DNA of 64,000 nt, taken from the IMG/VR virus record IMGVR_UViG_3300050821_003315, one strand, 5' to 3'. The first letter of the stretch is position 1; each line of letters opens with the position of its first letter. A program made the translations under genes and the position numbers. Shown here piece by piece: positions 11,201 to 55,121 of this stretch. Origin of the DNA: a virus. Under the pieces are notes generated by a model. The model was not told the DNA's origin. It ran no database searches and was given only the letters and a program-made list of their open reading frames with translations.

Positions 11201-14200
11201 GAGTCCAAGAGACTTCAGCACACTGCTGCCTAGGTTACCCGCAGCCTTCATGGTGTTAGCGATAGCCGCGCTAACAGTAACCTCAGCGCCAACCTTACCG
11301 CCACCATCCACGTTGGTGTGGACGTGCACGCCGTAGTTACCGGACATCCTCTTAAGGGAGTTCCACATAGCGTCGGCTTCAGTCTTGCTGTAGCCCAACT
11401 TCTGCGCCAAGGTGTTGAATGCCTGGTGAGACATCGTAGCCTTGTGCGTAATCTGGTCAAGGTACTGCTGCTGTAGCGTGCGCCACAGAGCGTCAGCCTT
11501 TACCGTGCTAACGTGCCACGCATTGCTTAGGGCATCGAACTGGCTCTTGTTACGCGAAGCCTTAGCCGTCAGCGTGTCGAAGTACTGCTGGTGCAGCATG
11601 TTCCACAAAGTGTTAGCTTCACCGGTGCTGATGTGCGCAGAACGTGCCCAGGCATCGAATGCGCTCTTGCTTACGCCAGTCTTGCCTGTAAGCGCGTCTA
11701 GGTACTGCTGGCGCATCATTGACCACAGTTGGCTAGCTGCACCTGTGTTGACACCGAACTGGTGAGCTAGCTTTTGCAGCTGACTATTGGTCACTCGCGA
11801 CTTGTTAGACAGCATGTCGAACTGCTGCTGACGGGACTGCGCCCACATTTGTGCGGCGGCGGTATTAGTAATACCGAAACCCTTGGCCAAGCGTATGAAT
11901 GCACTGTAGCTTACGTTAGCCTTGTTGGTCAGCGTGTCCAGATACTGACGGCGCAGCATGCTCCACAGTGCGTTAGCCTGAGTCCGGTTCAAGCCAAGTG
12001 TGTCAGCTAGTCGTCCGAGCTGGCTGTGAGTAATGCCCGCCTTACCCGACAACGCGTCCAGGTACTGCCGGTGCATTACGGCCCACAGTGTCTGTGCCTG
12101 AGTTCCGCTAACTCCGAACTGGTGGGCCAGGGACTGTAGCTGACCTACAGTAATGCGAGACTTGCCAGACAGCATGTCGAACTGCTGCTGGTGTGCTCGT
12201 TCCCACAAAACTACAGCACTAGAAGCTGTAACACCGAACTGGTGGGCTAGCTTCATGAACGCGCCGAGCGTGCCGGCGGCCTTGTTCTTCAGCATGTCTA
12301 GGGAACCGTCGTGGAACTTGTTCCACAGAGCGTCAGCCTGGGTCTTGCTAATGCCGAACTGCCTTGCCAGCTTCTCAAACTCAGTTCGCGTGCCAGCGGT
12401 TTGATGGAGCAGTCCCTGAAGACCGTTTTCCTTAAGCCGACCCCACAGCTTGGTAGCTTCCTGGGCACTCATTCCCATAGATTCACCGAAGTGAACCCAG
12501 GCAGCTCGCGAAGCTGTGACGCTGGTGATGTTAATCTGCGTGGCCTTAGCCACCTGAGCCATGGATAGGGCAGCGGTGCGGTTAGCAGCAGCATTAGCAT
12601 TTGTGGCAGCGTTGTTCTTGATAAGCGCGTCAGCCATCTTAGTGGCTGTAGCCTGGCTAACGCCCATCTGCTCTAGATAGGCTTCCAAGGATTGCCGTGC
12701 CATGCCAACGTTATGCGTTTGCATCAAGAATGCCTGAGCTACAGGTTGTGCAGCCTTCAACATCTGGCCCCAGCCCTGACCACCGACTTGAGAACCAGCC
12801 TTTACCCACGCGAGAGTAGCTTTAGCCAGGTTCTCAAGCTTCGGCCCCATGTTTTCCGCTGCCATGATGGCGTTGGACTCCGCTGTCAGAAGCTGTGAGT
12901 TCATGGTCTGAGAAAGCCGTGCTACGTCCTGGTTAAGGTTAGAGCTAGCAACCGTCAACAAGTTCATCTGCTTGTTAAGGTCACCAGTAGCGTTGGAGGC
13001 ATTACCTGCCCACTTGGTGATTGCCTGGAAGTCAGTAGTACTGCCTGTAAAGCCCCCAGTCTGTGCCAGAGCGCCTAGCATCGACGTAGCGCCCGGATTC
13101 CCCCGGACGCCCGGTACGTTGCCCAGCATGGCTACTGTGTCCTTAGCGGCCCTAGCAGACGCTAGATTAGCGCCCGGAGTGTTACCTGCCAGCGCAGCCT
13201 GAGTCATCAAGGAGTTCATCAGGGTCTCAGCCTGCTGAATCTGCTGTACGTAAGCAGCAAGGGAAGCAGCGCCTGCCTGAGTAACGCCACCGATTACACC
13301 GCCGCTGCCAGTGATAGGCTGGCTAGCGCTTACCTTGCCGTTAGCGAATGTGAAGGTACCGGTGTTGCCCCCAGCACCCCCTGCCGCTCCACCAGACGCG
13401 GCGGACGCGCCGGGAGGCGCTAGCGAAGTAGCTAGCGTGCCCATGCCCTGCTGGAACTGCGCGAACTGCTGTGCGCTGCCCGTAACCATCTGGATGAACT
13501 GTGAGTAAGCCTGCGTAACCTTTTGTACTTCGCCAAGCGTGTTAGAAGTACTTAGGGTCAGAGCGTTCATGGCCGAAGCAGCGCCACCGATGGCAGGGGA
13601 CATCGCCTGGAAGCCCACCAAGGTACCCTGAATCATTACCATGTCCTGCTGCCACGCACCCTTGTTACCGTGCAAAGCAGCAGTCTGGTCAGTAATCAAT
13701 TGCTTGGTGGTGATGCCAGCAGCGTTAAGCAAACCTATAGCAGCCGTCTGGCTGCCCGTCATCTTAGTGACAGCGGCAATACCGGAGTTGTACGCCTGCA
13801 TCTGGCCATTCATGGCGTCGAGGCCGGCCTTCAGGTCCTGGTAGTGCTGAAGGAGAAGTCCTGCGGACTCTCCTGCGGCACGTCCATACCTAGCCTGGAA
13901 CTGCAAGATGTTTGTAGCCTGCTGGAACGTTACATTCGTGCCCCTTAGTGCACGTCCCGCCGCAGTCTGAGTCATCGCGTAATTCATGATGGCTGCCTTA
14001 GCCACATTTACGCGGTCTGAAATCTGGTTATAGCTGTTCTTGGCCGCTGCTAGGTAATCGGCTAGCGGAGCATTTTGTGCCAAGTCTTCTTGTGTCTTGA
14101 CCCAGGACTGCGTTTCGTTGTCAACGTGGTGAATGGCCAGGTACAGCAGTCCTGCACCTACCGCAAGACCAGCCATTACGCCTAGGCCAATAGGTCCAAG

Positions 14201-50494: not shown

Positions 50495-50495
50495 A

Positions 50496-50576
50496 TGGAC
50501 TAGCAGGGAATCGAACCCTGGTGCTACTAGCTTCCGACGTTGCGGCTTTATCTAGCAGACGAGACCAACCTAGCCC
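50496..50576 (-). ncRNA. 81-nt tmRNA tRNA-like-domain (TLD)-only RNA with G3.U70 alanine identity
   Basis: GGGCTAG / CTAGTCC-A acceptor; stemless D loop GTTGGTCTCGT; helix CTGCTAG/CTAGTAG; 3-nt connector CAC; T arm CAGGG TTCGATT CCCTG. Confidence 0.65.
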
Positions 50577-50611
50577 AAGTTCAAGTGTAACTCAATCAGT
50601 GATAAGCGAAG

Positions 50612-50680
50612 TGCCCTCGCCCGGAGTCGAACCGGGTAGCCAAGCTTAGGAGGCTCGGCGCTGCGTCCGTCAGCGGGGGC
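50612..50680 (-). tRNA. tRNA-Arg(CCT), compact 69-nt form
   Basis: CCGAGC CTCCTAA GCTTGG; T loop TTCGACT. Confidence 0.75.
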
Positions 50681-50684
50681 AAAG

Positions 50685-50757
50685 AGGGGCATGTGGGAGT
50701 CGAACCCACGACTTCCGGGTTGCAGCCGGAATCCCGAAAACCATCGAGACATGCCCC
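50685..50757 (-). tRNA. tRNA-Cys(GCA)
   Basis: TCCGG CTGCAAC CCGGA; U73. Confidence 0.88.
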
Positions 50758-50758
50758 A

Positions 50759-50830
50759 TGGTGCTTCTATCCGGAGTCGAACCGGACAACCAACCTTCGG
50801 AGGGTCGGCGGAAGTTCCCCTACTAGAAGC
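50759..50830 (-). tRNA. tRNA-Arg(CCG), compact form, CCA encoded
   Basis: CCGACC CTCCGAA GGTTGG. Confidence 0.75.
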
Positions 50831-50834
50831 ACAG

Positions 50835-50910
50835 TGACCCCACAGGGATTTGAACCCTGAAAACTCCTGCTTGAAAGGCAGGTGACTTTAACCAATTTGT
50901 CCATGGGGCC
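50835..50910 (-). tRNA. tRNA-Glu(TTC)
   Basis: CCTGC CTTTCAA GCAGG. Confidence 0.92.
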
Positions 50911-50941
50911 TTGCAACTACAGTGTACACGGTTGCGCGCAG

Positions 50942-51015
50942 TGACCCTACAGGGACTTGAACCCTGAAACTCCACCTTGAGAGGGTGGCGACTTTACCTA
51001 TTTGTCTATAGGGCC
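50942..51015 (-). tRNA. tRNA-Glu(CTC)
   Basis: CCACC CTCTCAA GGTGG. Confidence 0.93.
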
Positions 51016-51018
51016 ATA

Positions 51019-51330
51019 CTAAATTTCTGCACCTGATTCAGGATAAGGACCTACTAGGTCATTTGAATCAAGAACAGGGTCTAGGAACTTGGCTATGATA
51101 GCTAGCCTGCTCCAGGTTATGAGGAATTTTCGTCCCGCGTAGTCTCCGTCAGAAACATTAATGCTGAGTCCTGACGGAAGTATCGCGCAATCTTCTTTCT
51201 TGAAGGACATATTATCTAGTTCGCGGGAGTGAGTTACAATTCGGATGCGAGTTACATCCTCATCGTTCCACCACGGAGGGTACAAGTAGGCGTTAGCCAA
51301 ATCGTTTTCCCTAATTACTCCGCGAGACAT
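51019..51330 (-). CDS. Hypothetical protein inside tRNA array
   Basis: RBS GGAGG and TAAGCT -10 upstream. Confidence 0.6.
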   Translation of the reverse strand: MSRGVIRENDLANAYLYPPWWNDEDVTRIRIVTHSRELDNMSFKKEDCAILPSGLSINVSDGDYAGRKFLITWSRLAIIAKFLDPVLDSNDLVGPYPESGAEI

Positions 51331-51365
51331 AAGCTGCTACCTCCAAGGTTTCAGCTTATCACGTT

Positions 51366-51437
51366 TGGCGCGGCACCAGGGAGTCTAACCCTGCCTAGGA
51401 ATTTAGAAGATTCCCGCCCGAATACGTCGGCTGCCGC
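51366..51437 (-). tRNA. tRNA-Arg(TCT), compact form with TTAGACT T loop, CCA encoded
   Basis: GGGAAT CTTCTAA ATTCCT; D arm CCGA CGTAT TCGG. Confidence 0.7.
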
Positions 51438-51441
51438 GTAG

Positions 51442-51514
51442 TGCCTCCCCAGAGACTCGAACTCTGATACACGGGGTAAAAGCCCGTTGTCCTACGCTAT
51501 TGAACGAAGGAGGC
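51442..51514 (-). tRNA. tRNA-Lys(TTT)
   Basis: ACGGG CTTTTAC CCCGT. Confidence 0.9.
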
Positions 51515-51518
51515 AAAG

Positions 51519-51590
51519 TAGGGTCGCAGGGAATTGAACCCTGTTAGCATGTGTATAAGACATGCGTCCTAACCAGTGAACGACGACCCC
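51519..51590 (-). tRNA. tRNA-Ile(TAT)
   Basis: CATGT CTTATAC ACATG. Confidence 0.88.
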
Positions 51591-51591
51591 G

Positions 51592-51665
51592 TAGCTCACC
51601 TGGGAATTGAACCCAGCACGTCTATCTTATCAGGATAGTTCCACCCACCAGGTGGACTGTGAGCC
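51592..51665 (-). tRNA. tRNA-Ile(GAT)
   Basis: CTATC CTGATAA GATAG; extended D stem. Confidence 0.85.
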
Positions 51666-51669
51666 AAAG

Positions 51670-51750
51670 CGGAAGATTGAGGTGCCGACCCCCGCACCTT
51701 TCGGTGCATCCGGGTTCAAACCGGATTGCCAGGCCGCTGGCTAACCTTCC
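51670..51750 (-). tRNA. tRNA-Ser(TGA), atypical T arm
   Basis: TCCGG TTTGAAC CCGGA; variable arm GCACC GAAA GGTGC; T loop GTCGGCA. Confidence 0.7.
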
Positions 51751-51823
51751 ACGATGTCGCTTTTGTTCAGCCAAGCTGACGGCACGGCAGGGTGCCCTGA
51801 ACGCGATAGTGACCATCGCAGCG

Positions 51824-51907
51824 CGGAAGACAGAGTACTCGAAACCCAGTCCTGACGGACCCATCTGCTTTCGAAACAGCGCCCGCAGCCTTACGGGTTT
51901 ATCTTCC
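51824..51907 (-). tRNA. tRNA-Ser(CGA)
   Basis: CTGT TTCGAAA GCAG; long variable arm; G73. Confidence 0.8.
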
Positions 51908-51911
51908 AACG

Positions 51912-51996
51912 CGGAGAGCGGAGAACTCGAATCCCAGCGCCTTACGACGCCCAGCTCGTTTCCAGCGAGTGCCCAGCCCTGCCAGGTTCACTCTCC
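51912..51996 (-). tRNA. tRNA-Ser(GGA)
   Basis: CTCG CTGGAAA CGAG; long variable arm; G73. Confidence 0.83.
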
Positions 51997-52007
51997 ATGT
52001 TACTGCG

Positions 52008-52082
52008 TAGCCGCCGTGGGACTCGAACCCACAACCTCAGGCACCTAAAGCCTGCGCCTCTGCCAAATTGGGCTAGGCGGCC
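52008..52082 (-). tRNA. tRNA-Leu(TAG), short variable loop
   Basis: CAGGC TTTAGGT GCCTG. Confidence 0.9.
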
Positions 52083-52152
52083 ATACTGCCCCGTTAATCC
52101 TCATCATACAGGCCCTGTACACAGGCTGAGGTGCGTGGAGGCTTACGCAGTG

Positions 52153-52237
52153 CGGAAGATTGAGAACTCGAATCCCAGTGCATCTCTACACCGCACTCGT
52201 TAGCAGCGAGGCCCAGAACCTATCTGGTTAATCTTCC
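52153..52237 (-). tRNA. tRNA-Ser(GCT)
   Basis: CTCG CTGCTAA CGAG; long variable arm. Confidence 0.83.
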
Positions 52238-52246
52238 AAGGGGGTT

Positions 52247-52319
52247 TCTGTGACGGACTTAAAGGCTTTATCCTACAGCGTACTCGCTGCCCGGACGCCT
52301 AAACCGGGACTTCCACAGA
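52247..52319 (-). ncRNA. Circularly permuted tRNA-like RNA (T arm - closed acceptor - D arm)
   Basis: TCTGTG GAAGT CCCGG TTTAGGCGT CCGGG CAGCG AGTA CGCTG TA GGAT AAAGCCTTTAA GTCC GT CACAGA. Confidence 0.55.
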
Positions 52320-52322
52320 CCG

Positions 52323-52397
52323 TGCCGCTCCGGGGATTCGAACCCCGAACATCTGGCTTCTGAGGCCAGCGCCTCTACCTAATTGGACTAGAGCGGC
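52323..52397 (-). tRNA. tRNA-Leu(CAG), short variable loop
   Basis: CTGGC CTCAGAA GCCAG. Confidence 0.92.
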
Positions 52398-52416
52398 ATA
52401 AGCTCTTTCGAGCCAG

Positions 52417-52488
52417 AGTGGATGACGGGATTCGAACCCGCAACCATCACCTTGGCAAGGTGATACGCTACCGTTGCGCCACATCCAC
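52417..52488 (-). tRNA. tRNA-Gly(GCC)
   Basis: TCACC TTGCCAA GGTGA. Confidence 0.95.
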
Positions 52489-52506
52489 ATAGTGCTTTTC
52501 GCACAG

Positions 52507-52579
52507 AGCCTTGACCGAGATTCGAACTCGGGACCTCATCCGTACCAAGGATGTGCTCTTCCGCTGGAGCTATCAAGGC
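52507..52579 (-). tRNA. tRNA-Thr(GGT)
   Basis: CATCC TTGGTAC GGATG. Confidence 0.94.
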
Positions 52580-52583
52580 AAAG

Positions 52584-52654
52584 CTGCGGTACAAGGATTC
52601 GAACCTCGATAGACGGGACCAAAACCCGTCGTCCTGCCGTTAGACGATACCGCA
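52584..52654 (-). tRNA. tRNA-Gln(TTG)
   Basis: ACGGG TTTTGGT CCCGT; U1-A72. Confidence 0.93.
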
Positions 52655-52667
52655 TTAACGTACTACG

Positions 52668-52739
52668 AGCCTCGTGCAGGATTTGAACCCGCGACCTTCG
52701 CCTTACAAGGGCACTGCTCTTCCACTGAGCTAACGAGGC
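52668..52739 (-). tRNA. tRNA-Thr(TGT)
   Basis: GCC CTTGTAA GGC. Confidence 0.9.
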
Positions 52740-52751
52740 ATTGTTACTGCG

Positions 52752-52836
52752 TGCGCGAAGAGGGACTTGAACCCTCACGACTCTTCCGAGTCACTGGACT
52801 CTCATTCCAGCGTGTCTGCCATTTCACCATCCGCGC
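52752..52836 (-). tRNA. tRNA-Leu(GAG), long variable arm
   Basis: CTGGA ATGAGAG TCCAG. Confidence 0.92.
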
Positions 52837-52855
52837 ATAGTTCCTTTCGGAACAG

Positions 52856-52923
52856 AGCCTCATCGGAGAATTGAACTCCGCGACATCCCCGTACGAAGGG
52901 GCTGTGTACCCAGTACATGAGGC
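52856..52923 (-). tRNA. tRNA-Thr(CGT), compact 68-nt form
   Basis: CCCC TTCGTAC GGGG; D arm GTAC TGG GTAC directly after the acceptor strand. Confidence 0.7.
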
Positions 52924-52927
52924 AAAG

Positions 52928-52998
52928 CTCCGGGGCAGAGATTCGAACTCCAATTAATAGGTTCAGAGCCTATCGTCCTGCCGTTAGACGACCCCGGA
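52928..52998 (-). tRNA. tRNA-Gln(CTG)
   Basis: ATAGG CTCTGAA CCTAT. Confidence 0.93.
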
Positions 52999-53015
52999 AT
53001 AGCGCTTTCGCGCAG

Positions 53016-53093
53016 TGCCGAATGAGGGAATCGAACCCCCGGTGCCAAAGGCAACAGTTTTACAGACTGCTTCCACTCCACGTGGTATCCGGC
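53016..53093 (-). tRNA. tRNA-Tyr(GTA), shortened D arm
   Basis: GCAGT CTGTAAA ACTGT; variable arm GCC TTT GGC. Confidence 0.82.
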
Positions 53094-53094
53094 A

Positions 53095-53170
53095 TGGTGT
53101 GACCGCTGGGAATTGAACCCAGATGGCTAGTTTCACAAACTAGCGTGTTAACCATTACACCACGGTCACC
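53095..53170 (-). tRNA. tRNA-His(GTG), CCA encoded
   Basis: CTAGT TTGTGAA ACTAG. Confidence 0.92.
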
Positions 53171-53171
53171 G

Positions 53172-53243
53172 TAGGCGATGAGGGATTCGAACCCCCGACT
53201 TTCTCTTTGTAAGAGAGATGCTCTTCCACTGAACTAATCGCCC
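53172..53243 (-). tRNA. tRNA-Val(TAC)
   Basis: TCTCT CTTACAA AGAGA. Confidence 0.95.
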
Positions 53244-53262
53244 ATAGCGCATTTCTGCGCAG

Positions 53263-53336
53263 TGCACTAGGAGGGATTCGAACCCCCAAGTCTCTTGATT
53301 CGTAGTCAAGTGCATTATCCGTTTTGCTACTAGTGC
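53263..53336 (-). tRNA. tRNA-Arg(ACG), canonical
   Basis: CTTGA CTACGAA TCAAG. Confidence 0.93.
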
Positions 53337-53337
53337 G

Positions 53338-53412
53338 CGACCCTAACGGGATTTGAACCCGTAACCTCCGCCGTGACAGGGCGGTGCTCTGACCAAGTTG
53401 AGCTATAGAGCC
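53338..53412 (-). tRNA. tRNA-Asp(GTC)
   Basis: CCGCC CTGTCAC GGCGG. Confidence 0.96.
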
Positions 53413-53431
53413 ATATCCTCTTGCGAGGAAG

Positions 53432-53503
53432 CTCCTGTGATAGGATTCGAACCTATAACCAAGCGGTTAACAGCCGCCTACTCTGCCGTTGAGCTACACA
53501 GGA
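53432..53503 (-). tRNA. tRNA-Asn(GTT)
   Basis: GGCGG CTGTTAA CCGCT. Confidence 0.95.
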
Positions 53504-53540
53504 TTAGCGCTTTCGCGCGGGTACACCTTAAGTATACCAG

Positions 53541-53611
53541 TACCTAGGGAGGGAATCGAACCCTCGTGTCTGGCTTATGAGACCAGTGTTCTTCCATTGA
53601 ACTACCCAGGC
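53541..53611 (-). tRNA. tRNA-Met(CAT), elongator (Ile2 not excluded)
   Basis: CTGGT CTCATAA GCCAG. Confidence 0.88.
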
Positions 53612-53614
53612 AAG

Positions 53615-53691
53615 TGGGGGCGCGTCCCGGATTTGAACCGGGGTTCTCCAGATTATGGGCCTGGCGAGATACCGAACTTCTCCAACGCGCA
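53615..53691 (-). tRNA. Initiator-like tRNA(CAT), atypical
   Basis: U1xC72 mismatch; fMet-like D arm GGAGAAGTTCGGTATCTCG; CCAGG CCCATAA TCTGG. Confidence 0.75.
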
Positions 53692-53692
53692 G

Positions 53693-53767
53693 TGCCCGAC
53701 CGGGGACTCGAACCCCGAACATCCGGTGTTTGAAACCGGCGACTCTACCTAATTGGCCTAGTCGGGC
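53693..53767 (-). tRNA. tRNA-Leu(CAA), short variable loop
   Basis: CCGGT TTCAAAC ACCGG. Confidence 0.92.
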
Positions 53768-53774
53768 AAACCTT

Positions 53775-53975
53775 CTAAAAGTGTCCCACAATCCTCCAGA
53801 TAGTCTGACTGTGGTAACGCTCGCAACGCAAGAACCAGTAACTGTGATACACAGCCCTTGTACCGAGTCGCGAACAGGAAGTGTTCGGAGCCGGGTGAGA
53901 CTGCGATGCTAGGGCTGAACCGCTGCCCAGTGCTATCGCTGCAATCGTGAACAAGGCTACAAGTAGTTTCTTCAT
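53775..53975 (-). CDS. Small secreted protein inside tRNA array
   Basis: MKKLLVALFTIAAIALGSGSALA signal peptide; two Cys; TAAACT -10 box 6 nt upstream (leaderless). Confidence 0.75.
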   Translation of the reverse strand: MKKLLVALFTIAAIALGSGSALASQSHPAPNTSCSRLGTRAVYHSYWFLRCERYHSQTIWRIVGHF

Positions 53976-53991
53976 GATTACAGTTTAGCAG

Positions 53992-54063
53992 TACCCCGCC
54001 AGGGATTCGAACCCTGACAACGCTGGGTAAGAGCCAGCTGCACTACCGTTATGCTAACGGGGC
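53992..54063 (-). tRNA. tRNA-Lys(CTT)
   Basis: GCTGG CTCTTAC CCAGC. Confidence 0.94.
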
Positions 54064-54067
54064 AAAG

Positions 54068-54139
54068 AGCGAGTGACGGGATTCGAACCCGCAGTGCCAC
54101 TTTGGAAGAGTGGGAGTTTAACCATTAACCAACACTCGC
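54068..54139 (-). tRNA. tRNA-Gly(TCC)
   Basis: CCACT CTTCCAA AGTGG. Confidence 0.9.
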
Positions 54140-54156
54140 ATAGCGCTTTCGCGCAG

Positions 54157-54228
54157 TGGCTCCCAGAAGACTTGAACTTCTTTATCTTGGGCTTCAACCA
54201 AGTGCTCTACCATATGAGCTAGAGAGCC
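54157..54228 (-). tRNA. tRNA-Phe(GAA)
   Basis: CTTGG TTGAAGC CCAAG. Confidence 0.9.
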
Positions 54229-54247
54229 ATAACCCTTTATAGGGCAG

Positions 54248-54318
54248 TCGGGATGCGGAGAATCGAACTCCGTCTGCATGCTCCCAAAGCATGCGCGCTA
54301 CCAGTACGCTACACCCCG
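54248..54318 (-). tRNA. tRNA-Pro(TGG)
   Basis: CATGC TTTGGGA GCATG. Confidence 0.93.
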
Positions 54319-54380
54319 TGGAGCCCGGTTTATTTTGGTTGCTCCGGAAATCACGGCAACTCGTTCATCATTGAACTACG

Positions 54381-54455
54381 TCAGAGTGGTGGGATTCGAA
54401 CCCACGACCTCCTGCATCCCGAGCAGGCACGCTAACCAAGCTGCGCTACACCCTG
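54381..54455 (-). tRNA. tRNA-Pro(GGG)
   Basis: CCTGC TCGGGAT GCAGG (C33). Confidence 0.9.
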
Positions 54456-54484
54456 ATACAGCCACCGCTTGCAATCAGTGGCCT

Positions 54485-54577
54485 AAGTTACATTCGCCGC
54501 TCTGCCATTAAGCTACAGTGCCGTGGGAGCTACCCTTGCACTGACCGGAGTCGAACCGGCACCTGTTTCTGTAACTT
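54485..54577 (-). ncRNA. YrlA-type bacterial Y RNA (permuted tRNA mimic)
   Basis: AAGTTACA...T arm GCCGG TTCGACT CCGGT - CAGTGC/GCACTG closed acceptor - TA - D arm GCTT AATGGCA GAGC - GGCGAATG motif - TGTAACTT closing stem. Confidence 0.75.
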
Positions 54578-54579
54578 TG

Positions 54580-54654
54580 TCTGGACGGGAGGATTTGAAC
54601 CTCCGACCTCCGCAATCCGAATGCGGCACGCTGACCAAGCTGCGCTACGCCCAG
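54580..54654 (-). tRNA. tRNA-Pro(CGG)
   Basis: CCGCA TTCGGAT TGCGG. Confidence 0.93.
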
Positions 54655-54740
54655 TTAAAGCACGGTGTGCTATGCTCCCTACACCATCCTGCCCCTGTTG
54701 GGACGGGTGCCGATTCCAACGGCGACCTCCGTGAACTAAC
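54655..54740 (-). ncRNA. Circularly permuted tRNA-like RNA
   Basis: CACGG AGGTC GCCG TTGGAAT CGGC A CCCGTCCC AACA GGGGCAGG A TG GTGT AGGGAGCATA GCAC A CCGTG. Confidence 0.65.
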
Positions 54741-54836
54741 GCCGGGTATGCTCCCTCCATACAACACCGGGCAACTCCACGCACTCTCATGCGCTTCACC
54801 GTCACCCAGGCAGGATTCGAACCTGCGCCTCCCAGC
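54741..54836 (-). ncRNA. Circularly permuted tRNA-like RNA with extended acceptor hairpin
   Basis: GCTGG GAGGC GCAGG TTCGAAT CCTGC CTGGGTGAC...GCGCAT GAGA GTGCGT...GTTGCCCGG TGTT GTATG GAGGGAG CATAC CCGGC. Confidence 0.65.
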
Positions 54837-54839
54837 AAG

Positions 54840-54914
54840 TGGACCATGTCGGATTCGAACCGACAACCTTCACCGTGCAAAGGTGTTGCTCTACCAGATT
54901 GGAGCTAATGGCCC
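54840..54914 (-). tRNA. tRNA-Ala(TGC)
   Basis: CACC TTTGCAC GGTG; G3.U70. Confidence 0.94.
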
Positions 54915-54995
54915 ATGGTGACCTGAACAAGGAAATGCGTCTAGCTATTCCCGGAAGCCGGGATTCTAGGCACACGCCCCTATTCAGGTCATCTT

Positions 54996-55047
54996 GCTTA
55001 TCACTGTTGAGTTATCAAATAACAGGACACTCGCCGTAGCGAAGTCC
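54996..55047 (-). promoter_or_regulatory. rrn-type boxB hairpin + boxA antitermination element
   Basis: GGAC TTCGC TACG GCGA GT GTCC hairpin then TGTTATTTGATAACTCAACAGTG, resembling the actinobacterial rrn leader boxA. Confidence 0.65.
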
Positions 55048-55050
55048 GTG

Positions 55051-55121
55051 CAGGCCACCAGAGAGTCGAACTCTGTCTAAGAGGGTTGGAGCCTCGTGTG
55101 CTTCCGGTACACCAGTGACCT
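55051..55121 (-). tRNA. tRNA-Trp(CCA)
   Basis: GAGG CTCCAAC CCTC; G73. Confidence 0.9.

Follow-up and report, generated by a model that had tools for sequence, protein, structure and literature searches.

A conserved leader-trailer helix resembling that of 16S rRNA precursors around a tRNA array in an uncultured soil phage

The transfer RNA (tRNA) cluster of phage T4 yields a polycistronic precursor that is cut by host RNases (RNase P, RNase E and RNase III); to our knowledge, neither a long-range helix bracketing this whole cluster nor a leader like those of ribosomal RNA (rRNA; rrn) operons has been described for it. In the case of Escherichia coli 16S rRNA, a leader-trailer helix of more than 17 base pairs (bp) is a critical element, and RNase III cuts such helices (PMC10250234). 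A boxA of the rrn type also stands before long non-coding RNAs, CRISPR arrays among them (Stringer et al. 2020, PMC7665894, cited in PMC7862264); the role proposed for it there is processivity of RNA polymerase against Rho. In the nut sites of phage lambda a hairpin and boxA in the phage transcript use host Nus factors (PMC10250234). Here we analyze a stretch of 64,000 nucleotides (nt; the window) from an uncultured soil phage, read in reverse orientation from an IMG/VR virus record of 163.5 kb (IMGVR_UViG_3300050821_003315), in which a long array of tRNA genes lies between two short complementary strands; their sequences argue for a leader-trailer RNA helix of the kind that brackets 16S rRNA.

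According to tRNA calling, the minus strand of the window carries 35 tRNA genes in one run (55121 to 50611). The leader (5') strand, TAACTCAACAGTGATAAGC, occupies 54996..55014 on the minus strand, and the trailer (3') strand, GCTTATCACTG-A-TTGAGTTA (that is, GCTTATCACTGATTGAGTTA), occupies 50588..50607 on the same strand, 3 nt past tRNA-Arg(CCT). Read in the tRNA sense, the two strands, 4.4 kb apart, form 19 bp with a single bulged A, just as the initial annotation had reported. Its placing of the leader at the head of the array has to be amended, however: the gene of tRNA-Trp(CCA) (55050..55121, minus strand), which keeps this place in all relatives, precedes the element, so that the bracket holds 34 tRNAs, from Ala-TGC to Arg-CCT (50611..54914, minus strand), and not 35. 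Two nt past tRNA-Trp there is a hairpin, GGACTTCGCTACGGCGAGTGTCC (hairpin 1; 55025..55047, minus strand; -13.3 kcal/mol), followed directly on its 3' side by TGTTATTTGATAACTCAACAGTGATAAGC (54996..55024, minus strand), in which a boxA-like sequence, TGTTATTTGATAA (55012..55024, minus strand), is joined to the leader strand; this reading of the leader agrees with the initial one.

Over the whole tRNA-sense strand of the 64-kb window, the leader has its strongest duplex partner in the trailer, and the trailer in the leader (-28.1 and -28.8 kcal/mol, z = -6.4). Duplexes of cognate strands, those of the relatives described below included, have energies between -27.5 and -32.1 kcal/mol, and shuffled sequences give -6 to -9. 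An alternative partner at 53506 was rejected, as it is the 5' half of tRNA-Asn and gives an interrupted duplex. The rrn-leader pattern TTTGANAACTCAAYAGTG has a single occurrence in the 163-kb genome, and no Rfam family covers the leader or the trailer.

The conservation of this pairing was followed in relatives of the phage, so that four lineages, the window included, were compared. Pattern scans of IMG/VR yielded one relative, G001 (181 kb), whose RtcB is 92% identical to that of the window phage; a metagenome scan with RtcB added a G001-like contig, L019, which carries the 5' side only, and distant RtcB loci without an array. Two more divergent lineages were located via RtcB (L035/L036, 78% identity; L037, 82%), and the 3' ends of their arrays (L039 and L038, respectively) via downstream genes in the same samples. 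In all three relatives a helix of 17-20 bp occupies the same two places. G001 has a perfect 20-bp pair, AACTCAACAGTGATAAGCAA and TTGCTTATCACTGTTGAGTT. L037 (...CAGCGGTAAGC) with L038 (GCTTACCGCTG...) differs from the window by T-A to C-G and A-T to G-C, changed on both sides, and L035 (...AGCTGAATAG...) with L039 (...CTGTTGAGCT) by one compensated change, A-T to G-C, and one U·G pair; a second U·G is contributed by L038. Compensatory changes in relatives, which the initial annotation had named as a check, are thus present: three full double changes and two wobbles. Both U·G pairs form only in the tRNA sense, while the opposite strand would have A·C. Moreover, each of the divergent leaders prefers its own trailer (-32.1 against -23.0 to -27.2 kcal/mol, and -28.0 against -19.0 to -26.1 kcal/mol).

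The position of the element is conserved as well. The trailer begins 2-5 nt after tRNA-Arg(CCT) in G001, L038 and L039, and the sequence directly outside it is unrelated between lineages, being a tRNA-like element in the window and L039 and open reading frames in G001 and L038. The orientation of the array relative to RtcB and to the downstream genes is constant in all lineages, with no inversion seen. When the Trp-Ala spacer is folded as a consensus (31 pairs, 8 of them changed on both sides), the leader strand stays single-stranded, with a conserved hairpin on either side. Hairpin 1 is found in all four lineages with differing sequence, and two of its five consensus pairs are changed on both sides; hairpin 2, a long one between the leader strand and tRNA-Ala (54919..54991, minus strand), accounts for the other 26 of the 31 pairs, six of which are changed on both sides. 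Hence, of the "boxB" in the initial annotation, the part that could be checked stands, namely that a conserved hairpin precedes the boxA-like site, while its sequence differs by lineage. Taken together, the conserved 17-20 bp helix, the compensatory changes and the wobbles confined to the tRNA sense argue for real pairing in an RNA leader-trailer helix and not for chance complementarity.

As to the likeness to genuine rrn operons, it was assessed by scanning prokaryote genomes, one for each species (596 Gb). About 35 of the 59 matches are expected by chance, and only matches in an rrn context are counted here as evidence. An exact 18-mer, TTTGATAACTCAACAGTG, was found in Aeromicrobium genomes, where it sits 137-143 nt before the 5' end of 16S at the two loci reaching 16S; the boxA-like site of the phage is part of this 18-mer common to the phage leader and the Aeromicrobium 16S leader. 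More generally, the core motif stands 137-193 nt before 16S in four genuine operons (L040, L084, L102 and L103), belonging to Aeromicrobium and two Actinomycetes genomes. In these operons the motif is the 5' strand of a leader-trailer helix of 35-45 bp that includes AACTCAACAGTG / CACTGTTGGGT and is closed by the internal transcribed spacer 1 (ITS1) about 170 nt after 16S, with trailers containing ...CACACTGTTGGGT..., and boxA lies within the helix. Among 301 Actinomycetes genomes sampled, 28 carry the pattern TTTGANAACTCAAYAGTG, with 1-4 copies apiece, and none carries the control pattern. The alignment with actinobacterial rrn leaders suggested in the initial annotation thus gives an exact 18-mer, and the 20/23 match that it had given, to TGTTGTTTGAGAACTCAATAGTG, is correct. 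This 23-mer is present in exact form in L006 and in the actinobacterial genome L101, in which a scaffold gap follows it directly, and so the genome does not show adjacency to 16S. The accompanying statement that such leaders consist of boxA and the 5' strand of an RNase III stem also holds; all four genuine operons pair the motif with ITS1. The match to both strands of a genuine 16S leader-trailer helix means that the rrn analogy is real; in sequence, the phage helix is a half-length copy of both strands of a 16S processing helix of the host type. Actinobacteria are the presumed hosts, and a hint as to the host comes from the closest leader, that of Aeromicrobium-type Nocardioidaceae.

Like rrn operons, the phage locus has a complementary leader and trailer around a long untranslated and highly structured RNA, the same core on both strands (AACTCAACAGTG / CACTGTTG[A/G]GTT), a boxA abutting the leader strand, conserved hairpins beside that strand and a covarying helix. 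It differs from them in enclosing 34 tRNAs rather than rRNA, in the helix (17-20 bp without boxA, as compared with 35-45 bp), in the tRNA that precedes the leader, in the promoter-like site that the bracket encloses, and in a boxA that is not kept in every relative.

The last of these differences bears directly on the possible involvement of Nus factors. The window, G001 and L019 carry TGTTATTTGA(T/C)AA, which matches actinobacterial versions of boxA at 11 of 13 positions, far beyond chance. At the homologous site L037 has AGCATATTGATAA (8/13) and L035 has AGCAAATTGACAG, so that in these two lineages the match is 8-9/13; no better boxA was found near either site, the best elsewhere (9-10/13) being at the background level. 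Thus, by its sequence, the boxA of the window branch is genuine, but the element as such does not conserve it; the Nus layer is not common to the whole phage family, and recruitment of Nus factors is plausible for the window branch only. As in the CRISPR case, boxA precedes a long untranslated array; in the phage, however, the helix and not boxA is the conserved part, while no leader-trailer helix is described for those other arrays. In comparison with lambda, where boxA is followed by boxB with the protein N and there is no closing helix, the order in the phage is hairpin and then boxA, as in rrn operons, and the boxA is of the host rrn type. With its hairpin upstream of boxA, the leader does not have the lambda nut arrangement, and no search for an N-like protein was made.

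Sequences resembling the rrn boxA were also seen in other phage DNA. Four IMG/VR contigs (L002 at 1885, L004 at 11324, L007 at 6820 on the minus strand and L008 at 2324 on the minus strand) contain the full rrn-type TGTT.TTTGA.AACTCAA[CT]AGTG; they showed no rRNA gene and no complementary partner within the DNA examined. A blastn search with the leader against 50,697 phage records gave no relative, the matches being to tRNAs and, at 22 of 23 positions, to mycobacteriophages of cluster K3 in a non-tRNA context. In Mycobacterium phage Keshu (L009, 2501-2523) and other K3 phages this rrn-boxA-like sequence, ATTTGAAAACTCAACAGTGATAA, is intergenic, occurs once per genome and lies directly before the start-associated GGGATAGGAGCCC of gene 92.

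Two putative promoters accompany the leader. The sequence GGAATA-N17-GTT, with spacing of the SigR/SigH type, occurs at eight sites in the window (1723, 46070, 47774, 54951, 55191, 55907, 56452 and 59282) against 0.29 expected. One of them, P1 (55166..55191, minus strand), lies upstream of tRNA-Trp and overlaps a GC hairpin; another, P2 (54926..54951, minus strand), falls within hairpin 2, just before tRNA-Ala. The sequence of P1 is conserved in the relatives and the core of P2, CCGGGAATAGCT, is invariant in them, and in both the -35-like element is in or beside a small hairpin.

Considering these data, we regard it as fairly probable that the 17-20 bp RNA helix around the 34 tRNAs, a copy of the 16S one, is processed by the RNase III of the host, with boxA as a possible extra. 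Transcripts begun at P1 or further upstream would carry both strands, and the helix would close around the 4.4-kb block of 34 tRNAs. Host RNase III would recognize and cut this helix, and the cut would free the block from tRNA-Trp and the upstream RNA on one side and, on the other, from what lies downstream, a tRNA-like RNA in the case of the window and protein genes in that of two relatives; in addition, it would give exonucleases an entry point beside the last tRNA. In the window branch, the boxA fused to the leader strand may additionally recruit NusB and NusE, which would maintain the processivity of RNA polymerase over so long a stretch without translation and keep the leader close to the enzyme until the trailer has come out. 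Gene searches of the phage revealed neither RNase III nor NusB; therefore, host factors would be needed. Of the proposal in the initial annotation that the array is expressed in the manner of an rRNA, the bracketing stem has stood up well, being conserved, covarying and similar to that of 16S, while the poor boxA match in L035 and L037 and the presence of P2 inside the bracket make the rest weaker.

Several observations weigh against processing by RNase III as just outlined, and the main one concerns P2. Whereas P1 is upstream of the leader strand, P2 is inside the bracket, downstream of both boxA and the 5' strand, unlike the situation in rrn operons, and transcripts begun there would be devoid of the leader strand. 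The weakness of boxA in L037 and L035 has been mentioned above, and in the window branch itself hairpin 1 followed by the U-rich boxA may be a leaky terminator after tRNA-Trp. The phage helix is about half as long as the genuine rrn helices, its copy in the window is bulged, and that of L035/L039 contains one G·G mismatch. The comparison covers only four lineages, two of which are close to each other, and the pairing of contigs L035/L039 and L037/L038 is based on sample, synteny and complementary contig ends, not on assembly. Finally, the array of the Myrna-like mycobacteriophage ScoobyDoobyDoo showed no comparable leader-trailer pairing and no boxA. Alternatively, the helix might be real but serve in something other than rrn-like processing or antitermination: it could protect the ends of the long precursor from exonucleases, mark transcripts reading through from operons upstream or control the downstream RNA or gene, the U run of the boxA-like site could be the tail of a leaky tRNA-Trp terminator, and transcripts of the array could come mostly from P2. 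The position of P2, the boxA of L035 and L037, the succession of hairpin 1 (-13.3 kcal/mol) and TGTTATTT in the window lineage, and the variable content downstream (open reading frames in G001 and L038, whereas the window and L039 have a tRNA-like RNA) all fit such a role, and in L038 the trailer ends about 10 nt before the start of an open reading frame, as would suit control of a downstream gene. However, the identity of the 18-mer with a genuine 16S leader, together with the 11/13 boxA, goes far beyond chance, both strands of a known helix of RNase III type are copied, and the terminator fails as an explanation for L035 and L037, whose hairpins lack a U-tract behind them. We therefore consider a role of this other kind rather unlikely, though it is the most serious of the alternatives.

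The two remaining explanations deny that RNA pairing matters. The strands might be an inverted repeat at the DNA level, at which a recombinase or transposase binds or crosses over or which marks the edges of a mobile tRNA cassette, with gene conversion keeping the two copies alike. In favor of this, inverted repeats are seen at the exact edges of a block with outside flanks that differ between relatives, and covariation by itself could come from DNA arms evolving in concert as well as from RNA pairing. On the other hand, no lineage shows the array turned round with respect to RtcB and the genes downstream, both one-sided transitions yield U·G in the tRNA sense, the sole open reading frame seen inside the array of a relative reads by eye as an HNH-type endonuclease, and the sequence matches that of a known rrn RNA helix, all of which makes the DNA repeat very improbable. 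As for chance complementarity, or a functionless relic of a captured rrn fragment, the window by itself is merely suggestive, because the margin of the best duplex (-28.1 kcal/mol) over the runner-up, which is inside tRNA-Asn (-26.6 kcal/mol), is small, and exact inverted 11-mers are common in it (788 pairs). The deciding evidence against chance is the conservation with compensatory changes in the relatives: three such changes and the best pairing of cognate strands in independent lineages, at a position that is kept while the flanks diverge. This explanation, already disfavored, is in our opinion the least credible of all.

The surroundings of the array deserve a separate description. Just outside the bracket, after the trailer, the window has a tRNA-like RNA (50495..50570, minus strand) for which ARAGORN makes no tRNA call; its acceptor-like stem has 7 bp and its T arm is canonical, and where the anticodon arm would be there is a stem of 7 bp carrying a loop of 21 nt. 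It is also present in L039 (about 11655-11735, minus strand), with the T arm and the anticodon-like arm conserved and a few compensated pairs, and is absent from this place in G001 and L038. In L038 (12548, minus strand) and L016 (about 1604, plus strand) protein genes begin shortly after the trailer strand, which suggests that in these two relatives the array may be co-transcribed with mRNAs; one of the proteins has, as read by eye, a lipoprotein-like N-terminus, MKKILFAIAGTALLAGCG. Inside the array, at 54485-54577 (minus strand), there is a sub-threshold match to the Rfam family YrlA (Y RNA-like; 30 bits versus a gathering score of 69, E = 0.002), located in the spacer between two tRNA-Pro genes, which is just 60 nt long in G001; an RtcB gene lies 3.5 kb upstream. 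The array of L039 has its tRNA order rearranged relative to the window, and an open reading frame inserted between its tRNAs (12125-12817, minus strand) looks like an HNH endonuclease from its translation read by eye.

Among other candidates, L105, found in the IMG/VR scan, turned out to be an unrelated tRNA-rich phage whose available ends show no clear bracket, the contig of P0006 (L100) belongs to a different temperate phage without an array, and BRock is not comparable, as its tRNAs are scattered among genes. In the literature searched we found no description of a leader-trailer helix or of a boxA at a phage tRNA array.

In general, the expression and maturation of phage clusters of 30 and more tRNAs are largely unstudied. 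As a tentative generalization, large phages of unrelated lineages might time and again have remodeled their tRNA arrays into rRNA operons in miniature, and in the present phage the mimicry would reach the level of sequence, with the closing helix and, in one branch, boxA copying the host 16S precursor. In that case the host machinery specific to rRNA (rrnTAC, RNase III) would transcribe, loop and cut the array, which might share regulation of the rRNA type or compete with host pre-16S for factors during infection. The element is a simple and testable one, acting in cis and made of two 20-nt strands, and could supply a design rule for expressing long arrays of tRNA or other non-coding RNA in actinobacteria. 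For the phage itself, a conserved closing helix of rRNA style would mean that it uses the rRNA processing route of the cell, and perhaps the rRNA transcription complex, for its own translation parts.

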